From Holothuria leucospilota (Eukaryota): 64,000 bases of DNA. The stretch spans positions 30,430,229 through 30,494,228 of the forward strand of contig CM055977.1 of the NCBI GenBank assembly GCA_029531755.1, in the 5' to 3' direction. A program made the translations under genes and the position numbers. Numbering within the stretch: position 1 is the first letter of the stretch; each line of letters begins with the position of its first letter. This document shows, in pieces, positions 4,339 through 45,054 of the stretch. The notes beneath the pieces were generated by a model that saw only the letters and a program-made list of their open reading frames with translations, was not told the DNA's origin and searched no databases.

Positions 4339-5005
4339 TTTATTTCGGCCTTCCATGGAATATAAAAAACATTACAAGATCACAGTAAGTTGTACAGTAA
4401 TACAAAGAACAAAGAAGTAGGAAAAAAGCCGGGGAGATTTCACAGAAAGCTACTTAAAGCTTGTAGAAGTGAATCCCCTTTTAGACAATATATATAAAAG
4501 TATCTGTATATATATAAAGAGATCAAGAATAATCACATAAAGGCATCCAAAAACAATGCAAGCAAAACATGAGAAAAAAACAGGCAACAACAACGAGAAT
4601 AAGTTACCAAGGGACAATGGAAACAGGCTAGAGACAGTTGGTATGTGAATATACTTAACTATAATGGGTAAGTAGGTACAGTTTGTGACGTCGCTTAAAT
4701 GTAGGAAGGGTGGGAGAATTTTTTATTTCGCCAGGGAGTGGCGTTCAGGTGAGAGGCCCTAAATACCTAATGTGACGTTTGGCTGATTGAGATTCTACAC
4801 AATGGGATTACAAAATCTAAAGAATTCCTAGTGTCGTAAGGGTGAACGTGGTGGTTGAAAAGGTTGATAAAAGAATTTGGTAATAAGTTATGGAAAGACT
4901 GAACATAAATACAGAAATGTGATGTTTTATGATATCAGGCAATGACAACAAAAAAATTATATTTCTTAAAGATTGGCTTAGTATGTTCGAGAGGTGACTT
5001 TCTTA

Positions 5006-6850
5006 TCAATTGCACGAAATATACGCTTTTGGATAACAAATAGTTTGTTTACATGAACATCGGCAGTATTTCCCCAGATGATGGCACAATAGGATAGCAA
5101 CGGTAAAATAAGAGAATTTGTAAATTGTAAGAAGAATTTTGATAGGTAGTAGATTATGCAACTTAAAAATAATACTGGAGCCTTTAGAGAGTTTCTTGCA
5201 AAGGTTTTTCAATATGGGGTATCCAGTTTAGGTGAGGGATCAATGGTTACTCCTAGAAAGTTGGCAGAATCAGAGAAAGGGTACAAAGTTGTTTTGAATT
5301 AAGATACCGGCAGTGTTACCAACAAAATTGATTCTTTTCTGGTATAGCCTAAAGAGAATAGCTATTGATTTCTTTGCATTTAAGAGGAGCTTGTTTGTAG
5401 CAAACCAGTTTGTTACTTTAATCATTTCGCTGTTAAGATAATGTAAAAGTAAATCAATGTCAGTATGTTCATAGGAAATATTGGTATCATCCGCATACAG
5501 GGTAAACTTTAAACGAGAACTTACGGGACGGTAAGTCATTTATATAAATTAAGTACAATAGAGGACCAAGTATGAACCTTGCGGAACGCCTGTTGTAATA
5601 CTACACATGTGAGAATTAACGGTTGATATATTAACATACTGAGACCTGTTACTAAGATAGTCATTAAACCAGTGATAAGCAATACCGCGAATACCATAGT
5701 GATGTAACTTATACATAAGAATATTATGATCCAGGGTGTCGAAGGCCTTTGAAAGATCAAGAAAAATACCACAGGATAACTTATTATTTTCAAAGGCGTC
5801 GATTATTTTGTTGGCAAAATTGATCAAAGCATGAGATGTTGACTTTTAAGGGAGAAATCCGTACTGGTGTTCGTAAATTATACCGTGCTTTTCAAGGAAA
5901 TTTAGAGACGAGTATAAACAATTCTTTCAAGAATTTGCGTGGGAAAACACCGGAAGAACAGAAATTGGCCTATAATTACTTTTCAAAAATTTGTCACCGG
6001 ATTTATAGATTGGAATGACTCTTGCTAGTTTTAAATCTGTTGGAATAGTACCATTTCGTAGGGAGAGATTAATAATATGACATAGGGGTACAGAAATGAA
6101 ACAACCCACAGATTTAATAACTTTACAATGAAGATTGTCATGGCCGGGGCTAACATTTTTCAGATTCTGGATACAGTTGTAAAATTTCATTTTCATCAGT
6201 CGGGTGTAAGTACATTACATAATCATTCTCAGTGGGCAAATAGTCCGTATAAGAGAAATGAGAATCATTTACAATGCTACTAGATAAGGTATGACCAACA
6301 CTGACAAAATAATTGTTAAAAGTATTGCAAACCTCCTTAGGCTCGGAAACTTTCTTTCCATTTTCAACAAGCTCGTTTACGGAATTACCTTGGGCCTTAC
6401 AGCCGCGTAAGATAGTATTGATAGCATTCCAAGTGCCTTTTATACTCTTTGTATCAAATTCATTCTGGTAAAAGTTGAACTTGGCTACCCGAATAACAGT
6501 CGTTAATTTATTCCTGAATCTGCTGTAGGCTGCCTTGTTTTCCAGAGTAGGGTGATTAATACATTTGCGATATAGCTTATTTTTAGTACGACACGAGTTT
6601 AATATACCTTGTGTACACCATAGTTTCTTTGCCCCGGAAGGCTTAACAGTTACAAAAGGAAAGCAATTATTGTAACACTTGTTAAATACATCAATAAACG
6701 TATTATACGCAGAATCTGAGTCTGTGCAATCTAAAACGTCTGACCAATCAATTTGAGAAACACAGTTTGTAAAATCAATTATAGTTGACTGGGTTATCAA
6801 ACGTTTGGATCCATTATTTTGCTGAGTGCTGGGAACAAATTTTGTACATG
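5006..6850 (-). mobile_element. CR1-like non-LTR retrotransposon (LINE) fragment, frameshifted RT
   Basis: Minus-strand ORFs 5270-5539 (YADDTNI motif), 5549-5827 (FLDLSKAFDTLDHNIL...WFNDYLSNRSQYV...GVPQGS RT motifs), 5927-6196 (RT N-terminal), and 6150-6800 (upstream region) lie in different frames, so the copy is degraded. Confidence 0.8.
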
Positions 6851-12116: not shown

Positions 12117-13170
12117 ACTTTGAAAACAGGGTTGAGAAACTCGGTTGGCTAAAGAGCTAATCTAACCCGAGGCCCTGATTACAAACATGCAAAAGTAAGA
12201 AGTAAAAAGTAAAGGTGTAAAACATATAGAAGTTCACAAAAATTAAAAGGGAGATGAAAATAAAATAAGATCAAACATATAAAATGATGTAAAGCATAAG
12301 ATAGAAAAATGAAACAAATTATAAACATAATTCAAACCAAAAGTAAAATAAAATAAAAGGGATTAACTGATTTCATGAATAAGACGTTTAAAACAACTCA
12401 GAGTTTTAGCATCCCTACATTCTGGTGTGAGTAGTACATTCCAATCCCTTGCAGCCAGATAGGAAAATCGTCTTTTGTGATATTCTGTTTTACCACCTTT
12501 TATAAAGAGACCGTTTGAGGTTGCGGATCGTAACCTATATGAATGTGTATCCCTTGTGAACTGGAAAAGCTCTCTCAAATAATCAGGTGCCAGAGCATTC
12601 AAGCATTTGTATAAGATTGTTAATCGCTTTTCTTGAATACGTCTGTCCATTGTTTGCCATTTCAATGCGTCAAGAAAATGATGAGAATTTTGCAGGGTGT
12701 GTACATCATTAAAAATTGCCTTCGCTGCTTGTTTTTGTAGACAAATTACTTTTCCCATGTTTCCCTTACTACAGTTACCCCATATAGCACTACAATAATC
12801 CAAAATTGGTAGGATGTAACCTGTATAGTATAGTATACATGTATCTTTATCAATAAAAGGCTTAATTCTCCTTAACAGAGCTATCCTGCTACTGATCAAT
12901 GAATAAATATAATTAATGTGAGAATTCCATGATAGCGTTGGATCTATATATACACCCAGAAGTTTTTCAGATTCAACATTTTCAAGTAAACAACCATTTA
13001 CCTCAACAGAGAGTGTTCCATTTTCTATGAACTTTGACAGCCTCTGGTGTGATCCTAGCAACATGGTTTTAGTTTTATGGGCGGGTGTTCATAATCATTT
13101 TGTTCACCTCACACATTTACTTATAGCACACATGTCAGCAGTTAATTTTTCATTGATATCATTAATATTT

Positions 13171-14148
13171 CTACCCATTACGTACGTAAAAGGTGGTATC
13201 ATCAGCATACATGTCGTACATGCAACGTCTTAGCGAGAGACCCATATCATTAATGTATATTAAAAATAACAATGGTTCTAGAATCGAACCTTGTGGTACT
13301 CCATATACAACCTTCACTGGAGGATTTGAGAGAACGCCATTTATTTGACAGCGTTGGGTTCTCTCTGACATATATGACCGAAACCACTGTAAGGAACTTC
13401 CTGATATACCATAAATATGTAGCTTTTGAATCAACACATCATGGTTAACTAGGTCGAAAGCCTTTCTCAAATCCAGGAAAACAGTACCCACACAGAACCC
13501 TGAATCAATTGCTTCCATCCATTTATCCGTAATTTTAAGAAGGGCAGTCTCACAGGAATGTCTTTTCCTAAATCCTGACTGGGCCACTTTAAGTAGATTA
13601 AATTCATTCAAATAACTAAATAATGCATCATGCACATGTTGCTCTAAAATTTTTGATAGTACTGGTAATATGGATATCGGTCGATAGTTTGAAACATCAA
13701 GAGCAGATCCACTTTTAAAAATTGGTGTAACTCTAGCTTGTTTCCAACTTTTAGGGAAAACCTTATATTTGATACTTAAATTTATGATACTTGTTATACT
13801 CGCAGCAATAACATCCGCACTACTCTTCAAAAGGCGAGCACTGATCTTATCAAGACCCGTTGCTTTAGTTAAGTCCAGCGATTTTAAGAACTTCAATACA
13901 AAATGTTGCGAGATTTCCGGGATGTCAAAGAATTTTCCATTTGGTACATTCTTAGAAACGTATTGCTGCAATGCAGTTAAATCAAGGTCATGGAAAACAT
14001 TATTAGGTGATGCGTACTGAGCCGAAACCGAAGTAAAGAAGTCATTGAAAGCATTTGCAACCTCCACGGTGCCTTCAATTTCCTTTCCTTGTACTATTAC
14101 AAGGTTTGGTGACTTGATTTTTCGTATTTGTATTATTCGATTGAACAT
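13171..14148 (-). CDS. LINE ORF2 segment: reverse transcriptase domain
   Basis: RT motifs 1-7 including FLDLRKAFD, GVPQGS, YADD. Confidence 0.8.
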   Translation of the reverse strand: MFNRIIQIRKIKSPNLVIVQGKEIEGTVEVANAFNDFFTSVSAQYASPNNVFHDLDLTALQQYVSKNVPNGKFFDIPEISQHFVLKFLKSLDLTKATGLDKISARLLKSSADVIAASITSIINLSIKYKVFPKSWKQARVTPIFKSGSALDVSNYRPISILPVLSKILEQHVHDALFSYLNEFNLLKVAQSGFRKRHSCETALLKITDKWMEAIDSGFCVGTVFLDLRKAFDLVNHDVLIQKLHIYGISGSSLQWFRSYMSERTQRCQINGVLSNPPVKVVYGVPQGSILEPLLFLIYINDMGLSLRRCMYDMYADDTTFYVRNG

Positions 14149-14193
14149 TCCGTAGAATATGCCAAATTGCTTTGGAATTGCCCTTGTTTTTGG

Positions 14194-15152
14194 TTATTGC
14201 ATTATCTGATTATGAAAATAATTCCGTTTTGCATTCCTTAAAAGTCTGGTTACTTTATTCCTGGCCTGTCGATACATACTGGGCTCAGAAAATTTTGCCT
14301 TGTTTCTCTGTCTTATTGCCTCAGTAATTTCACTATTAAACCAGTCAGGTTGGAATCTTTTCCTGACTCGTTTTTCCTTGTTTGGAGCATGCTTACTCAA
14401 AACACCCATAAAAATACATTCCCATGCTTGTAAGACTTCATTTGGGTCATTTCCTTTGGGTGAGTCTGGCGAAATATTCAACTGCCAGTCTAAATCTTCG
14501 TTAAAATTACATATATCTATTTTATCAATATTTCTGTATTCAATTGATTTGTGTGCATTAGTCTTGATTTTCATGCTAGAATGCTTCCAAGTAAAGAAAA
14601 TTGGGAAGTGGTCACTAATCGTTATGTCGGAGACTGTTAAATTAACAACACGTCTCCCGTTAGTAGTATAAACGTGGTCTATTAACGTAGAAGTACATTC
14701 GGTGTTACGGGTTGGCAATTTGACTACTTGTGTTAATCCAAGAGACTCAATATCATGTAACCATTTCTTGTTTTCACCATTGAGCAGATTGAGGTTAAAA
14801 TCCCCAATGACAATAATATCTAAATTTGAGTTGCATGGGTTAGTCATCATTTCAAGGAATATATTTGACCATTCAGTTTTAGAGTCAGGCGGTCGATACA
14901 GTACGCACAAAAGAACATTTTTTAAATTACGTAGAGGAATTTCTATCCATAGGGCTTCAATATCATCTTTTCATAATCATTCCTTCTAACACAAGGTACA
15001 CTGCTTTTAACGTAAATGGCTACACCTCCTCCTTGCTTTCCCTTCCTGTCTCTACGAAATATATTATATCCGGGAATGTTTACCTCATAATCCATATAAG
15101 TCTCGTTTAAAAAAGTTTCATTAAGGCAAAAAAATATGGAAATCAGAGTCAT
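14194..15152 (-). CDS. LINE ORF2 segment: apurinic-like endonuclease domain (two frame pieces)
   Basis: DNase-I-like EEP motifs in the translations of 14943-15152 and 14194-14910. Confidence 0.7.
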
Positions 15153-36939: not shown

Positions 36940-38230
36940 TGTCTTTGAATGCGAACAGAACAACAATAGGGCCTTGGTGCCGGGCATGGGACATCGCATT
37001 ATATAGAGAAGGAAATTAACAATCGTATGGGGTAACTTTCAGCCCCCCTCCTAACAGTTTGGGATACTCCAAACCAGATATCTTGGCAGGACCCGTTATA
37101 CTTAGTTCTTTAAATACCCTTAACACGTATTAAATGTAACAGGGCCATGGACACCAATAGGGCCGCGTGGTGCCGGGTTCGTGACATCACCATTGTATAG
37201 AAAAATTTTTTAAAATCGTGTCCGGTACTTTTCAGACCACTGCGAACACAGTTTGGGATACTGAGACAAGATATTTTGGAAGGTCCCGTTATACTTAGTT
37301 CTTCGAATACCCTTGACACGTATTTAATGTAACAGGGCTACGGACACCAATAGGGTCTTGGTGCCGGGCACTGGACATCACCATTGTGTACTGAAGGATT
37401 TTAAATATGATTTGGGGTACTTTTCAGCCCTCTCCTTACAGTTTAGGATACCTCAAACCAGACATCATCAAAGCACCCTTTATATTTAGTTCTTAAAATA
37501 CTTATTAACACGTATTTAATGTAACAGGGCCATGGACACCAAAAGGGCCACGGTGCCGAGCATGGGACATCACCATTGTATATGGAAGAATTTTAAAAAT
37601 CATGTGCGGTACTTTTCAGCCCCCTCTCAACACAGTTTTGGATACTCCAGACAACATATTTTGGAAGCACCTGTTATACTTAGTTCTTCAAATACCCTTA
37701 ACACGTATTTTATGTAACAGGGCTACGGACACCAATAGGGTCTTGGTGCCGGGCACGGGACATCACCATTGTATAGAATAAAATTTCAAAAATGATGTAT
37801 GGTACTTTTCAGCCCACTCCTAACACAGTTTGGATACTCCAGACAAGATATTTTTGGAAGGACCCGTTTTACTTAGTTCGTCAAATACCCTTAACAGGTA
37901 TTTAATGTAACAGGACTACGGAAACCACTAGGGCCCGGTGCCGGGCACGGGACATCACCATTTTGTAATGAAGGATTTTAAAAATCATGTACGGTACTTT
38001 TCAGCCCACTCCTAACACAGTTTGGGGTAGATATTTTTGGAAGGACCCGTTATACTTAGTTCGTCAAATACCCTTAACACGTATTTAATGTAACAGGACT
38101 ACGGAAGCCACTAGGGCCCGGTGCCAGGATGGGACATCACCATTGTGTAATGAAGGATTTTAAATATGATTTGGGGGTCTTTTCAGCCCTCTCCTAACAG
38201 TTTAGGATACCTCAAACCAGATATCATCAA
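36940..38230. repeat. ~190-bp satellite tandem array (~6.5 units)
   Basis: Repeating unit aacagggc(c/t)a(t/c)ggacaccaatagggcc...ggacatcaccattgta...tacttttcagcc...gtttgggatac...ttatacttagttcttc.aatacccttaacacgtatttaatgta with clear periodicity. Confidence 0.9.
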
Positions 38231-38596
38231 AACACTTATGTGTATGTGCATGGTGCATGTACTGTATGAACCTAACCCAGCATTTAACTATGTTGCAATT
38301 GGACAACACTGTGTTCTTATTAGCAGACATTGGTGTGAACGTCCTATTTACAAGATTTATCAGCGTGGTAGAATATTAAAAAAAAAAAAAACTGGGATCG
38401 CTTGAAGTATAAATCATATTTTTGGACGTATTTAGGAAACTAAATGTGAGTATAAAATTTTTAGAGTACAGATATCCTGAACATTTGGATCTGTACAGAT
38501 GAGTTATTTAGGGGTATATGTGAAATTGTTAATCTGAGAAGACTGTGACCAGCCAAAATTTTAAATGTGCGGTAGCCCAATTTTACAATGACTTAA

Positions 38597-38667
38597 AATG
38601 TCATTTTAAGACTGTAGAGTGGGGGCTACAAGCCCATACGAAACAAATTTGTATCTTGAAAATGTCA
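38597..38667 (+). ncRNA. Degenerate hammerhead ribozyme motif copy (core CUGUAGA: A6→U; one helix II mismatch)
   Basis: Same scaffold as the other two copies but with a mutation at conserved core position A6 and a G·A mismatch in helix II, so it is likely inactive. Confidence 0.5.
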
Positions 38668-38847
38668 CAGAGTTTACTTATTATTTGGATTTATACTCGC
38701 TCCCATCGGTTGAGCACTATTTCCAGTGTTGTTTCACAACTATGTATTCTATATATATATATAGAATACATAGTTGTGAAACATCACTGGAAATAGTGCT
38801 CAACCGATGGGAGCGAGTATAAATCCAAATAATAAGTAAACTCCTAT

Positions 38848-38916
38848 GACATTTTCAAGATACAAATTTGTTTCGTATGGGCTTGTAGCCCACACTCTTC
38901 AGTCTTAAAATGTGAT
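38848..38916 (-). ncRNA. Type I hammerhead ribozyme motif (minimal helix III with palindromic AAAUUU loop), in PLE left inverted repeat
   Basis: Minus strand reads AUCACAUUUUAAGA-CUGAAGA-G-UGUGGGC-UACAA-GCCCAUA-C-GAAA-C-AAAUUU-G-UA|UCUUGAAAAUGUC. Core CUGANGA and GAAA are present; helix II is 8 bp with one G·U; the cleavage triplet is GUA; helix I strands are complementary with a 1-nt bulge. Confidence 0.7.
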
Positions 38917-39431
38917 ATCCTAACCGTTACACAATAATAATAACAATATGAAAATCTGAAAGCGCGCCTGGATGCGTCATCAACAAGAGCAAAGCGTCTT
39001 TTATGTATTCAGCAGATTATTATCGGCGTCGCATGCAAACAGTATACGTGCAAGATAGCGGTAGTATAATAAAAGCAAAGCGTCTTATATGAAAATATAT
39101 GTAGGTTACAGAGCAACGGCGTCGCGTGCGAACGGTGTACGCACAAGATAGCAGCTGTATAGTAATAGATTTTTGTGACGTCAGTGCGTTAAAATTTGGC
39201 AAACTGGACGTCATTGCTCATGCGCAAAGGACGAAAGGACCTTAGTTACCACTGTTGTACAAAGGACACCTCACCGTTAAAATAAAGAGGCGCGCAGCGC
39301 AGTGACGTCGATGCACCTATAGAGAAACAGTTTCATATATGAAGAAGCTACAACGGCGTCACAAGCAAACGATATATGCGCAAGATATTGGCAGTATAAA
39401 CATAATAGAAATGTAGAAGCGACTTTTTACG

Positions 39432-41105
39432 TCATTGCAAATCACGAAAGTTATTAAAAGATAATAGATTCTTTTTACGGTGTCTACAGCTGCTTGCCAG
39501 TTCATTCCTATTATTCAAGGAAGACATATGTGGTCTGTAGATGATAAAATATTTCTCGGTTATACAAAGGTTGCACCTTTTACTAGATGTTGAATATGGT
39601 TTACCATATGCAAGGATTCTCCATTTGATCGAGTACGGTACGTTACTGTCTTTTAATGACCAGATATATCGGCTCAGAGTAGTAACGTTCCTCTGGTTTT
39701 CATTTCTGAAACTGCTGCTGTGACCGTTGAATCTTGTTTTGAAGGAATTTTCAGTTAATCCGACGTATGTTTCCACCTTAAGGTTATCATGTCTTGTTAC
39801 TAAGGCTTGATATATTACACCAGATGCTAGGCAGTTACCTTCTAGAGGGCATGGGTTGTCTTTCCGGCAGTTACAGCTTGGAGTATTTCGTGCACGATCT
39901 GCAGTTTTCTCAGCTCTTAAGATCGATTTATTGTGTGAAGTGATGATTTGATGCACATTTGGCATACAACTGTAACTTATTTTGACGGTATTTGGGTTCA
40001 GTATTTTACATAGCTGATGTCCTGGGGGAAAACATTTCTCGAGCAAATTCAAGAACTTCTTACCGACGTTGGTAGCAACGTTTGCACTGTATGGCGGGTT
40101 AAACCATGTTATGTTGCGTTTCCTTTTACGTTTTTCGTTGTTGTTGTTACGGGATGGTGGCTCATATCTCAGTTGGTGCTGATACCCGCTCTTTGTGAGT
40201 GCTTCCTGATATGGCGGTGCCGCTGCGTCAAATACTGCATCATTAGATGATATGGTGGAGAGGCGTCTGTTGACGGCTTTTGGGATATTCTTAATGATAG
40301 ATGGTGGGTGATTGCTTTCCCTATGTACATATAAAGGTGTATTGTTCTGTTTCATGTAAGGCTTGTAGGTGCCGGTTCTCAGGTCTAGCGTCACATCAAG
40401 AAAATCAACAGTTTTCTTATTAGCCTCGATCGTGATCTTCAGAATGTTGCTCGTGAAGACCTTGCATATATCTTTCTTGATAATTTCCGTTTGTCTTGGA
40501 GATTTGCTGCAGAGTGCTAGACCATCGTCTCTATATAGTCCTACATTGATGTCTAAATGCTGAAGTTGAGACAGGATATATAGTCCTATTAGCTCACAAG
40601 TTTCAGCTCCATCATAGCTTCCCATAGTGACATCGAAATTGGAGTTTTCGTGTTTGCACCATGGTAATTCATTATCGTATAATAGGGACCTTTTGGCGTG
40701 GAGTATGATGGTCTTATCTTGTTCGGAGATATTAACATACTCGGAGGCAAAATCGAGAGCTTTTAGAAGAAGTTTTTCCGTGATAGATGGGTAAAACTCG
40801 CAAATATCAAAACAGATGAAAGAATTTCCGGTCACATCGTCAATTTGATTGTACCATTCGATCACCTCGTTAGTATTCCTCCACTGGTTGAGGTTAGTTG
40901 AACTTACAATTTTGGAGTTGATTCTGTCGATGATTTGCTTGCTTATGATTCCAATTTCAGATTTCCTGGGATTGATTAATCTACACGAGGGTTTGTTTAC
41001 GAAGTTTGGTTTATGGTCTTTCAGTGTCACAAAAGCTTGGGCTTTGGCGGTGGTATCAATGCGGTCATCTAGTTCTAGGTCAGTTGCTATTTTCTTGTCT
41101 TTCAT
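39432..41105 (-). CDS. PLE ORF: reverse transcriptase fused to C-terminal GIY-YIG endonuclease (possibly N-terminally truncated)
   Basis: Longest ORF in the window (557 aa); domain order RT then GIY-YIG is diagnostic of endonuclease-positive Penelope-like elements. Confidence 0.8.
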   Translation of the reverse strand: MKDKKIATDLELDDRIDTTAKAQAFVTLKDHKPNFVNKPSCRLINPRKSEIGIISKQIIDRINSKIVSSTNLNQWRNTNEVIEWYNQIDDVTGNSFICFDICEFYPSITEKLLLKALDFASEYVNISEQDKTIILHAKRSLLYDNELPWCKHENSNFDVTMGSYDGAETCELIGLYILSQLQHLDINVGLYRDDGLALCSKSPRQTEIIKKDICKVFTSNILKITIEANKKTVDFLDVTLDLRTGTYKPYMKQNNTPLYVHRESNHPPSIIKNIPKAVNRRLSTISSNDAVFDAAAPPYQEALTKSGYQHQLRYEPPSRNNNNEKRKRKRNITWFNPPYSANVATNVGKKFLNLLEKCFPPGHQLCKILNPNTVKISYSCMPNVHQIITSHNKSILRAEKTADRARNTPSCNCRKDNPCPLEGNCLASGVIYQALVTRHDNLKVETYVGLTENSFKTRFNGHSSSFRNENQRNVTTLSRYIWSLKDSNVPYSIKWRILAYGKPYSTSSKRCNLCITEKYFIIYRPHMSSLNNRNELASSCRHRKKNLLSFNNFRDLQ

Positions 41106-41407
41106 GTTGATGTGATTCTCAGTAGCTTTCGGTGCTTTTTTGTAGGATTTAGTGATATTGTCTGCAAGGAGTTTGTTGTACTGATCGGGTACAACAACGC
41201 GACGCCGTTGCTCTGTAACCTACATATATTTTCATATAAGACGCTTTGCTTTTATTATACTACCGCTATTTTGCGCGTATACTGTTTGCATGCGACGCCG
41301 ATAATAATCTGTTGAAAACATAAAAGACGCTTTGCTCTTGTTGATGACGCATCCAGGCGCGCTTTCAGATTTTCATATTGTTATTATTATTGTGTAACGG
41401 TTAGGAT

Positions 41408-41477
41408 ATCACATTTTAAGACTGAAGAGTGTGGGCTACAAGCCCATACGAAACAAATTTGTATCTTGAAAATGTCA
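41408..41477 (+). ncRNA. Type I hammerhead ribozyme motif, copy in PLE right inverted repeat
   Basis: Plus strand has the identical architecture: atcacattttaaga CTGAAGA g tgtgggc tacaa gcccata c GAAA c aaattt g ta|tcttgaaaatgtca. Confidence 0.7.
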
Positions 41478-41495
41478 TAGGAGTTTACTTATTAT

Positions 41496-41499
41496 TTGG

Positions 41500-41542
<43 letters not shown>

Positions 41543-41598
41543 TATATACATTAATGTATACATATATATATATGTATATATATATGTATATATATATG

Positions 41599-41646
<48 letters not shown>

Positions 41647-42415: not shown

Positions 42416-42790
42416 CTACGGGGCAAAATTGATACGCTTTTTGGAATTAAGTTCATTTCTTTTGTTAAGGCCATAGGGGAAAATAGTACGCAATTGGGCA
42501 GTCCAGTAGATTTCATGGCTGAGGAATTTCTTGTTGGTTTCTATGGTATCGGTGATGCGTTCAATCGGGAGAAAAGCTAAGTCAGTTAATTCATGGGGAG
42601 TGTGATTGAAATGGGTGGCTACAACGCAAGTTTTCTTATTAGTAAGCATGTGGGATTTGTGATTACGAAATCTAACTTTAAATTCAGTAGAGGTAGAACC
42701 AATATACTTGACATTACATTTCAGACAAGTTAACAGATAAATAACATTCTTAGTAGTACAAGTGATGTACTGCTTAAAGTGGCCATGACA
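42416..42790 (-). mobile_element. Orphan GIY-YIG endonuclease domain fragment (second, diverged PLE-type EN; no adjacent RT)
   Basis: Minus translation KNVIYLLTCLKCNVKYIGSTSTEFKVRFRNHKSH…KFLSHEIYWTAQLRTIFPYGLNKRNE has the GIY…YIG…R…H…E…N motif order; family differs from the 39432-41105 ORF. Confidence 0.55.
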
Positions 42791-44721
42791 CGTAAATTGG
42801 AGTAACGGGAGACTAATTTAGGCTAAAGTACACAAAAAGCTCTTTCTAAAACTGTTTTCATCACCCTTACAGCCTTGAGCATTAAAAAGAAATTAATGTT
42901 TCAAAAAATTGCACCAAAAAATAGACTGTTGAAAATGAGATTTCAAGCCAACACAATAATGACGTCATTTTAGGAACACCATCCTCCGCATACTGAACCT
43001 GGCGTACAGCATAGCCTATACATAAGTAAGAGATGGTAATGATTGTAATTCGTGGCATGTCTTGAATTTGAACTTTTATTCTGTCTGTTTGGAGAGTGGT
43101 GTCGGTCTGTTATATTTTGGGGCTGCAATAGGCTATTACTAATAATTACAAAAACTCTTGATTCATAACCGAAAAACGAAAAAACTCGGCAGTATACTGT
43201 TCGGTTTGGTCTGCGTACAGTGAGTGGACTGGCAGCAGCCAGTGAATAATACTGTGCACACGCAATCATAGCCTAGGCTACTAGTTCCACGATTTCCACT
43301 GACACTTGCACGAAAGTAACCAAAAGTTCATATTTTGACTGCCTACATAAAACTTTCCAAGCTAAAGTCCCTTTCAATTACTCCAAATGCTTCTAGTGCT
43401 CAAATTGTTGTGGTGTTGTACTTTTACCTCACCTAACACTGTCACAAATCGATACGGTCCTGTGCGCCGTAACGAATTACTCACCCCATCTGCCCCACTG
43501 ACGTCTTGTTCAGCATCGCCTTCGCCTTTCTGATTTCAAATCCAAGAAAACTCACTTTACCGACAGTCCACTGACAATTCCTGTCCGATCAGGGAGTTGC
43601 CATTAGAGGACAACTCCCTGGCTCAGATCCGCCATTCCAAAGAAAGTATTAAATTTGATTTCACATGGTACCTACTACGAAACAGTGCTGGTGATACATT
43701 GTGTAGTAACAGGTATGTTGTGTACGGTACCCATGGAAGTAGTACTTCCATGCTGTACCTATGCTGTTGTGTTGTGAATGTTTGTACATGCAGCTACTCA
43801 TCATGACACCAAGACAAAAAACCTGCATGAAATGCATTTAATTGACTGAAACAAGTGGTAAGCACGAGAAAAGGGATAACAATTCCAAAATTTACAACCT
43901 TTCACGCAGGTTTTACATTGTATTGACCTTGGTAACCAGTACAATGGAATGCAAACACTGTATCAAATGTCCGAAGGATACCACACCAAACAACGATCAG
44001 TTCCTAAAGTGACATCACATGACGTAACAAGATTTTGAGAATTTTTGGAAAGACTAACTTTTCAGGGCTGGAAGAGGGTGTATTTTTTCTCAATTTTCGA
44101 GCGGAAAAACAAGTTGTAAATAAACAGAATGGTTGATTTTCGTTGTAGGAAACGTATTCCTAAGGATACAAAAGGGTTTAAACCGTTAATTTACACGTGG
44201 CATAGCCACTTTAATGTAGTATGAGCGACCTGTGGCGGCACAGTAGAAAATACGAGAAGTAGATGAGTAATTTTGACAGAGGTCACATTTGTTGTTACAA
44301 GTAAAAAAACCGGGGGAGGTAAGATCAGGAATGGGGCACTTATTCTTAAATTTTGAGGGCGCCACTAATTCTTTCAAATTTTTAGTTCTTCTGAGGCTTT
44401 GTTGCATGATATTTGTTGAAAGTCCCAACTTTTTGCTGAACCTCAGAATGTTTGTACATACCAATCTAGTAGCCCTTGAACAGCACTTTGTCTTTCTGCT
44501 TCCAAACCTTCATCTCAGAACTTGTAATTAGTTTACAAATTTTTACATTTACCTTTTTATGGTACTGTATCAGGGGTCCAGGTATCACTCATATTAAACA
44601 TTACCATTTTTTTTTTTTATCAACCTTAGTCTAAAACTAACTTTCAGGCATAGGTTTTTTAGTACCTACTGTGATTACTGTCATACTCATACTTTGACCA
44701 GCCTGTTTGTAAAGCTGTGAT

Positions 44722-45054
44722 TTGATGACAAACAATGGTCATGTACAACTGTATCAAAAGCAGGGTTTGATGCTACCTGGATTGCCAGATATGACACTTT
44801 TGACTTGCAGTATATACCTCAGAAACACTCACTTAGACACCCATGCTTATTTGCTCCACGGGGAAGAGAGACCATATTGTATCCCCTGTGATTGCGATGT
44901 CACTGTCAGTCACATTCTCGTCGACTGCTATGAATACTCCCATATTCGTCAGAAGTATTACACTGTGCCAGACCTGAAGACATTGTTTGAGCACGTAGAC
45001 CCCTCTCTCATTTTGGACTTTCTCAAAGAAAGTAACCTTTACAGAAAGTTTTGA
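44722..45054 (+). mobile_element. LINE ORF2 3'-terminal fragment with CCHC zinc-knuckle (CIPCDCDVTVSHILVDC)
   Basis: 110-aa ORF with a C-x2-C-x7-H-x4-C motif typical of the extreme C-terminus of non-LTR ORF2; no RT upstream. Confidence 0.5.

Follow-up and report, generated by a model that had tools for sequence, protein, structure and literature searches.

Hammerhead ribozymes in the inverted 3' ends of a probable Hydra-clade Penelope-like element from Holothuria leucospilota

Why should a retroelement carry hammerhead ribozymes (HHRs) in inverted repeats on both sides of its coding region, as part of its design or as a consequence of how it was inserted? The locus that raises this question lies in a 64,000-nucleotide stretch of Holothuria leucospilota DNA (GenBank assembly GCA_029531755.1, contig CM055977.1, positions 30,430,229 to 30,494,228; hereafter the window, whose own numbering is used throughout), and comprises a minus-strand open reading frame (ORF) for a reverse transcriptase (RT) and GIY-YIG endonuclease (EN) of the kind found in Penelope-like elements (PLEs), together with three HHR copies. 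We consider it very likely that a Hydra-clade PLE has inserted here into a (TA)n microsatellite as a composite of a truncated main copy and two inverted 3'-end fragments, the inverted repeats being by-products of integration.

The evidence that carries this reading comes from homologous elements. In the protein collection, 3640 homologs of the window ORF were identified, the closest sharing 55-72% identity with it and having a typical length of about 705 aa, and nine homolog-encoding loci (L001-L009) were taken for comparison. In intact relatives, which are arranged as direct repeats or tandems (L005/L006, tandem with a period of 2863; L008, direct repeat with a period of 2561), the HHR stands on both sides of the ORF in sense orientation. 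Inverted arms accompany a 5'-truncated ORF with (TA)n on both sides in L002 (508-nt arms) and L004 (186-nt arms), and in L009 an inverted HHR lies upstream of a truncated ORF. Arm length differs among loci (186, 310, and 508 nt, the second being that of the window), and the L002 arm reaches into ORF sequence. Because arm lengths vary and intact relatives have direct repeats or tandems, the inverted repeats are best read as by-products.

In the mechanism we propose, the element nuclease would nick both DNA strands and each end would prime reverse transcription of the RNA template, so that priming from both ends would give rise to inverted, 5'-truncated copies, with the HHR as a part of the element's 3' region. 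Such copies are typical of PLE insertions (Craig, Yushenova, Rodriguez and Arkhipova, 2021, PMC8557442), and a PLE protein able to cut and extend the two DNA strands (Frangieh et al., 2024, PMC11167929) would explain them; the combination of head-to-head and tail-to-tail junctions within (TA)n fits this published activity.

Layout of the locus

The arms of the inverted repeat (38818-39127 and 41197-41506) are 310 nt each and 99% complementary, with four mismatches, none within the HHR, and a divergence of 1.3% between the main copy and the fragment that we call copy B. On the other side, a perfect palindrome (38670-38756 and 38757-38843) with a (TA)7 tract at its centre joins the main copy to a second fragment, copy C, which on base-by-base comparison differs from the main copy at five positions, one of them an indel. 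The components are as follows.

41196 down to 38757, minus strand: main copy, a 5'-truncated PLE with an uninterrupted, N-terminally incomplete ORF, 3' untranslated region (UTR), one sense HHR, and 3' terminus
41197-41506, plus strand: copy B, a 310-nt piece of the element's 3' end, placed head-to-head against the truncated main copy and forming an inverted repeat with 38818-39127
38602-38756, plus strand: copy C, a 155-nt piece of the element's 3' end, in tail-to-tail orientation to the main copy and about 97% identical to it
38750-38763, no strand: midpoint of the tail-to-tail palindrome, a (TA)7 tract read from the sequence
38764-38817, minus strand: 54-nt terminal extension, in the main copy and copy C, not in copy B
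38914-39431, minus strand: 3' UTR of the main copy, holding three repeats of about 50 nt
41507-41641, no strand: (TA)n microsatellite abutting the right end of the element (41503-41641 by Tandem Repeats Finder)

The (TA)7 tract is probably a remnant of the microsatellite target, and the (TA)n at the right flank is likely the insertion target itself. The 54-nt extension is a candidate for the PLE 'tail', a concept described in two studies (PMC8557442; PMC11167929). Its presence in some copies and absence from another fits the signature expected of a tail with dual starts, and the two internal start sites of reverse transcription reported for a PLE (PMC11167929) would explain why such a terminal 'tail' is optional.

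The start of copy C (38602) coincides almost exactly with the 5' edge of helix I of its hammerhead, and the 10 nt that precede it are near-palindromic with its first 10 nt (ACTTAAAATG-T-CATTTTAAGA, 38586-38611), which may represent a further tiny inverted fragment or junction microhomology. The 3' UTR repeats (39024-39075, 39117-39168, and 39354-39399) share 75-80% identity among them, and several ACGTCA motifs occur in the element around 39178, 39207, 39303, and 39430; judging from sequence, these could be promoter or protein-binding elements of a pseudo-long terminal repeat (pLTR). Matches to plant and animal microRNA precursors in Rfam at 38694-38819 reached up to 81 bits, remaining below the gathering threshold, and arise solely because of the perfect palindrome formed by the tail-to-tail PLE ends.

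The original prediction had placed a PLE with an RT plus GIY-YIG ORF at 39432-41105. An ORF of 557 aa is present there on the minus strand, with an RT fold and PLE motifs, but it is not complete. Homology to the closest relative begins at residue 125 of that relative, corresponding to window position 41189; the inner edge of the right arm (41196/41197) lies seven bases away. The ATG at 41105 is aligned with a Thr of the closest relative and is therefore not the native start. By this alignment, the ORF is short of about 124 residues at its N terminus, and the RWK and DKT motifs are missing with them. The coding features are given below.

39432-41196, minus strand: 5'-truncated RT plus GIY-YIG ORF, with homology to full-length relatives from 41189 to the stop codon at 39432-39434
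40170-41189, minus strand: RT domain, approximate limits, with the invariant D of FICFD and an invariant YRDD
39831-39875, minus strand: Cys-rich linker CNCRKDNPC...C (CxCX5C), in which C8, C10, C16, and C22 are invariant in the alignment
39522-39824, minus strand: GIY-YIG endonuclease core, with VIYQA...YVGLT and invariant R, H, E, and N; CxxC and CxH flank E and N

No variation occurs within the family at the RT FxD and YRDD or at the nuclease Y, YxG, R, H, E, and N. Within the nuclease, the stretch VIYQALVTRHDNLKVETYVGLT is free of Cys and is followed by CNLC..E..N..CRH, these markers and those of the CNCRKDNPC linker being invariant in 21-26 homologs. An AlphaFold model of 585 residues (pLDDT 77) places an RT fold in the N-terminal two thirds, followed by a GIY-YIG nuclease, and Foldseek matched it to RT structures (DRT9, Tribolium TERT, DRT2, G2L4, a retron, a group II intron, and LINE-1 ORF2p) with E-values from 1e-8 to 1e-5 and probability 1.0, the prokaryotic DRT9 ranking first and TERT third.

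The hammerhead copies and their relatives

Inverted flanking repeats, each with a type-I HHR and a short self-complementary helix III, had been predicted for this locus, and both the coordinates and the covariation among relatives bear this out. The three copies, all inside 3'-terminal fragments of the element, and the parts of the plus-strand copy are listed here.

41411-41475, plus strand: intact type-I HHR, predicted to cleave between 41463 and 41464, identical to the minus-strand copy
38849-38913, minus strand: intact type-I HHR in ORF sense, 516 nt 3' of the stop codon, predicted to cleave between 38861 and 38860
38601-38665, plus strand: mutated HHR, with CUGUAGA (A6U at 38615) and U to G at 38622
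41411-41421, plus strand: helix I 5' strand, ACAUUUUAAGA
41422-41428, plus strand: CUGAAGA
41429-41449, plus strand: helix II with its 3-5 nt loop, GUGUGGGC(U)/(A)GCCCAUAC
41450-41453, plus strand: GAAA
41454-41461, plus strand: CAAAUUUG
41462-41463, plus strand: UA, with predicted cleavage after A41463
41464-41475, plus strand: helix I 3' strand, UCUUGAAAAUGU, with one bulged G

The conserved type-I core is complete in both intact copies (C3 U4 G5 A6 N7 G8 A9, G12 A13 A14, A15.1-U16.1, and H17). Folding, which had been suggested as a check, gave the expected structure: folded without constraints, the 73-nt RNA has as its minimum free energy (MFE) structure precisely the three-way junction of a hammerhead (-18.7 kcal/mol, z = -3.3, equalled by 0 of 200 shuffles). 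We further scanned both strands of the 64 kb with a descriptor of our own (CUGANGA, closed helix II, GAAA, closed or absent helix III, UH, and helix I), and the two intact copies were the sole matches with helix I of at least 5 and helix II of at least 4. Under a null model of 200 dinucleotide-preserving shuffles, shuffled windows held a mean of 0.02 matches at these settings and none with helix I of at least 8 and helix II of at least 6, stricter settings that are still below the observed helix lengths. The window contains just three occurrences of the 33-nt string that covers the HHR core and helix II, at 41422-41454 (plus) and 38870-38902 (minus) without mismatches and at 38612-38644 (plus) with two, where none would be expected by chance. 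Chance does not explain the motif.

The third copy had been described as carrying an A6U change, and it does so, reading CUGUAGA with the changed base at 38615; a mismatch in helix II comes in addition, as U to G at 38622 produces a G.A mismatch. One substitution and a 1-nt deletion lie just 3' of the motif, and the hammerhead junction is lost in the MFE fold of this copy. The residue A6 belongs to the invariant core of hammerheads, and the third copy is therefore soundly inferred, from its sequence, to be inactive. The claim that each strand presents one sense HHR holds for the minus strand, which has one, but not for the plus strand, which has two in direct orientation, 2810 nt apart, one of them with A6U.

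An HHR of the same design adjoins the ORF in ORF sense in eight of the nine loci according to the descriptor (L001-L006, L008, and L009). When the window 3' UTR and tail are compared with the DNA of relatives, the HHR core alone aligns (with a 21-nt exact match in L001). Ten distinct ribozymes from homologous elements were aligned, and the core is invariant in all ten. Standard pairs fill 96.5% of the alignment cells, compared with 70% in column shuffles and 22-47% with slid partners, and compensatory changes occur in 10 of 16 base pairs (5/5 in helix I and 5/8 in helix II). A covariance model built from the ten ribozymes recovered untrained copies in L003, L004, L005, and L009, and in the window it returned the three known copies alone, at 63.5, 63.5, and 50.2 bits, the last being the mutated one.

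Two of the loci show peculiarities. L007 has a degenerate variant alone, with CUGAUGA, a helix II with an unpaired U on both sides, GAAA, and CUCAGAG, which is incompatible with a normal helix III; this variant occurs in inverted copies around the ORF, at 5223 (plus) and 2550 (minus). L002 holds, at 1014-986 on the minus strand, an unrelated HHR with a 4-nt helix III, and two different sense HHRs (4974-5007 and 5157-5194, plus), 183 nt apart, downstream of one ORF.

The relatives also bear on the form in which the ribozyme would act. The helix III segment ACAAAUUUGU reads as a 10-nt palindrome without any mismatch, and the self-complementarity of A-CANNNNUG-U is kept in 96% of cells across relatives. 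The inner helix III pairs, which are impossible in a monomer hairpin, are kept in 18 of 20 cells, and the fourth pair alternates between G-C (5), A-U (4), and G-U (1). Modeled with RNAcofold, the homodimer is a double hammerhead in which the two molecules share a helix III of 10 bp, at -48.2 kcal/mol against 2 x -18.7 kcal/mol (10.8 better). Since the helix III segment remains self-complementary in relatives, these data and the cofold model support a dimeric ribozyme, in which helix III would be too short for a stable monomer and ACAAAUUUGU would pair two copies into a double hammerhead. The palindrome and the cofolded dimer thus agree with the dimer-forming part of the predicted minimal HHR, but the 8-nt helix III is nearer to the 'canonical' HHR.

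Competing explanations and the state of this copy

Several results weigh against the reading of the locus as a Hydra-clade PLE insertion with hammerheads in its 3' ends. The Rfam hammerhead families (RF00163 and relatives) had no match at the gathering threshold on the whole window, nor at E<=10 on a 3.1-kb slice or a 96-nt slice. Pfam returned no RVT_1 for the ORF, four homologs, or 26 alignment members, and a GIY-YIG match in 1 of 26 family members (E = 0.085), while NCBIfam and a profile search of PDB sequences gave nothing relevant for the ORF family; the identity of both domains therefore rests on predicted structures and motifs. The seed descriptor demands pairing, which inflates the paired percentage in the alignment, and the clade was assigned by published motif descriptions rather than by a phylogeny on reference sequences. 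In published in vitro assays, the hammerheads of metazoan PLEs showed poor cleavage, and one PLE did not need its HHR for insertion (PMC11167929).

The descriptor bias leaves the compensatory changes and the untrained covariance-model matches unaffected. As to Rfam, a Hammerhead_1 match had been proposed as a check of the original prediction; this search gave no match, and we judged the criterion invalid, since Rfam also misses the HHRs of relatives. The same library (Rfam 15) reported none of about 20 covariation-supported HHRs in seven related loci, which makes the negative result for the window uninformative, and the PLE hammerheads in the literature were searched for with RNAmotif descriptors instead of covariance models. 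Thus, a protein family of 3640 members goes unrecognised by Pfam, NCBIfam, and PDB sequence searches and its ribozymes are missed by Rfam, and standard annotation pipelines would therefore leave such loci blank.

The dispensability of the HHR in vitro also speaks for the best of the alternatives, namely that the ribozyme is an independent, selfish, retrozyme-like RNA module that hitch-hikes in the end of the PLE with no role in transposition. Craig et al. suggest that HHRs may 'simply parasitize PLEs', and Naiads thrive without them; a 2026 preprint ties non-LTR retrozymes to PLE pLTRs, and the 183-nt distance between the sense HHRs of L002 is a retrozyme-like spacing. However, the standard motif holds the same position and sense relative to the ORF in eight of nine loci despite otherwise dissimilar UTR DNA, which indicates long co-inheritance and selection within the element, and we regard the hitch-hiking module as unlikely.

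The inverted layout could instead be a functional design, with a sense ribozyme per strand that would process both transcripts or release a defined double-stranded RNA (dsRNA) or circular RNA. An intact sense HHR is found on each strand, and the inverted-arm layout recurs in L002, L004, and L009. Nevertheless, arm length is different in every locus and in L002 includes ORF sequence; every inverted case is accompanied by a 5'-truncated ORF, intact relatives being direct repeats or tandems; the literature treats inverted 5'-truncated copies as an integration by-product; and sense and antisense copies within one transcript would produce dsRNA, not ribozymes. A designed inversion is consequently very improbable in our judgement. 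Equally remote is the idea that the palindrome and the inverted repeat are assembly artefacts: PLE structures do cause assembly problems (Craig et al., PMC8557442), but the arms differ at four positions and copy C and the main copy at five including an indel, differences that collapsed or duplicated reads would not create, and the same architecture is present in independent assemblies. Finally, a DNA transposon with terminal inverted repeats encoding a GIY-YIG nuclease, to which 310-nt, 99% identical inverted termini around a single ORF with a nuclease domain might point, was rejected and has next to no chance of being correct, given the RT fold with intact YRDD in the N-terminal two thirds, the head-to-tail tandems of relatives, the lack of a fixed arm length between loci, and a left 'terminal inverted repeat' that is nothing other than the 3' UTR belonging to the copy with the ORF.

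Within the composite insertion of a PLE, the most likely role of the HHR RNA, by analogy with what has been published for other PLEs, would be to process multimeric PLE transcripts, possibly with the help of the PLE protein. At this locus, the ribozyme is probably idle. An ORF-sense transcript would hold a single sense HHR (38913-38849) and two antisense copies, and predicted fold energies amount to -256 kcal/mol for the palindrome and -546 kcal/mol for the 310-bp arm duplex, compared with -18.7 kcal/mol for the HHR; according to these predictions, the lone sense copy would be locked in dsRNA with its antisense partners (a palindrome of about 150 bp and arms of 310 bp). Because the N-terminal domain is missing and the HHR is buried in dsRNA, this copy is most likely an inert relic, and a young one, as its ORF is still open and its arms differ by only 1.3%. 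It is highly doubtful that the composite has been selected or co-opted, either as a ribozyme-trimmed dsRNA source of small RNAs that regulate PLEs or as a half-active double hammerhead of the plus strand. If that were so, read-through transcripts would form long perfect dsRNA with ends trimmed by the ribozymes of each strand or, alternatively, the two plus-strand HHRs would release an antisense RNA of defined length.

Further mobile-element remnants surround the locus. On the minus strand at 42416-42790, an ORF fragment matched Pfam GIY-YIG (E 1.8e-5, 25.4 bits against a cut-off of 22.6) and gave a weak tblastn match to the EN part of Hydra-type homologs; its sequence identifies it as a second, different PLE-type endonuclease remnant, just beyond the (TA)n tracts. 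No HHR was found beside this fragment with the descriptor or the covariance model. At 12363-14910 (minus), three adjacent ORFs with Exo_endo_phos_2 or Exo_endo_phos and RVT_1 matches mark a degenerate non-LTR retrotransposon of the long interspersed nuclear element (LINE) type, inside which a very weak match to the HHR descriptor (13205-13166, helix I of 3 bp) is probably due to chance. To the left of the PLE composite, at a distance of a few hundred bases, is a tandem repeat (37028-38235) of about six copies with 80% matches, whose unit of 193 bp was scored as 385 bp as well. Two short ORFs, 44186-44464 (minus) and 44722-45054 (plus), had no Pfam match. One of them has a Cys-rich stretch and ...TGRSYYIK, which we take to resemble the start of a PLE-type linker and GIY, and the other a Cys/His-rich C-terminus presumably reminiscent of the ends of LINE ORF2.

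Comparison with known systems

Metazoan non-LTR retrozymes (PMC7229834; bioRxiv 10.64898/2026.07.22.740005) have in common with the present element type-I HHRs, a short palindromic helix III, and action as tandem copies, and their relationship to PLE pLTRs has been proposed (bioRxiv 10.64898/2026.07.22.740005). They are, however, short non-coding tandem repeats, whereas the HHR described here is located at the end of a PLE that encodes a protein, and the window contains no array of non-coding tandem repeats.

Closer likenesses are found with the hammerheads described in PLE repeats in 2014 (Cervera and De la Peña, 2014, PMC4209133). Shared features are the type-I topology, a long helix II (8-9 bp here, 7-8 there), the G10.1-C11.1 closing pair, the location in terminal repeats of PLEs, a short self-complementary helix III that implies a dimeric active form, and close-set copies on opposite strands. 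Helix I is longer here (11 bp and one bulged G) than in those ribozymes (4-5 bp), and no unpaired nucleotide stands between A9 and G10.1. The fixed 8-nt CANNNNUG helix III is nearer to the 'canonical' HHR of Craig et al. than to the minimal HHR that lacks helix III.

For the Poseidon PLE of Anolis carolinensis (PAc), the protein cleaves and extends both DNA strands, reverse transcription starts internally at two sites, and the HHR works only with the protein (Frangieh et al., 2024, PMC11167929). The window element shares with PAc an RT plus GIY-YIG protein and an AT-rich target, but the clade is different, and the PAc HHR overlaps the start codon, whereas that of the window lies 516 nt past the stop of a truncated copy; in tandem relatives, the HHR is about 130-200 nt upstream of the next ORF. 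No biochemical study of the Hydra clade is known to us. A panel for testing dimeric, protein-assisted hammerheads of Hydra-clade PLEs is available in the intact and A6U copies that share this locus and in the covarying relatives.

The reference clades named at the outset (Penelope, Poseidon, and Neptune) did not prove the right ones, since motifs, size, and the (TA)n target point to the Hydra clade. As described by Craig et al. (2021, PMC8557442), elements of this clade are shorter than 3 kb, insert into (TA)n, and contain readily detected HHRs. Their C-terminal EN is without the CCHH motif, whose two cysteines sit between GIY and YIG; a CxCX5C linker is present, and the catalytic E and N are framed by CxxC and CxH. 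An RWK motif, a change of DKG to DKT, and a divergent RT motif B complete the description. The window ORF shares the CNCRKDNPC linker, CNLC...E...N...CRH, and the lack of Cys between VIYQA and YVGLT, and every full-length homolog aligned has RWR/RWK and ADKTTNFY. The divergent RT motif B, (TA)n insertion, the HHR, and inverted 5'-truncated copies are likewise in common, and the unit periods of 2561 (L008) and 2863 nt (L005/L006) fit a size below 3 kb. No qualitative difference from the clade was found; RWK and DKT are missing from the window copy because of its 5' truncation. By its published motifs, the element thus fits the Hydra clade. HHRs were published for PLE repeats in 2014 (PMC4209133) and for this clade in 2021 (PMC8557442), and the locus adds to an already described phenomenon and clade one young copy with the expected ribozyme.

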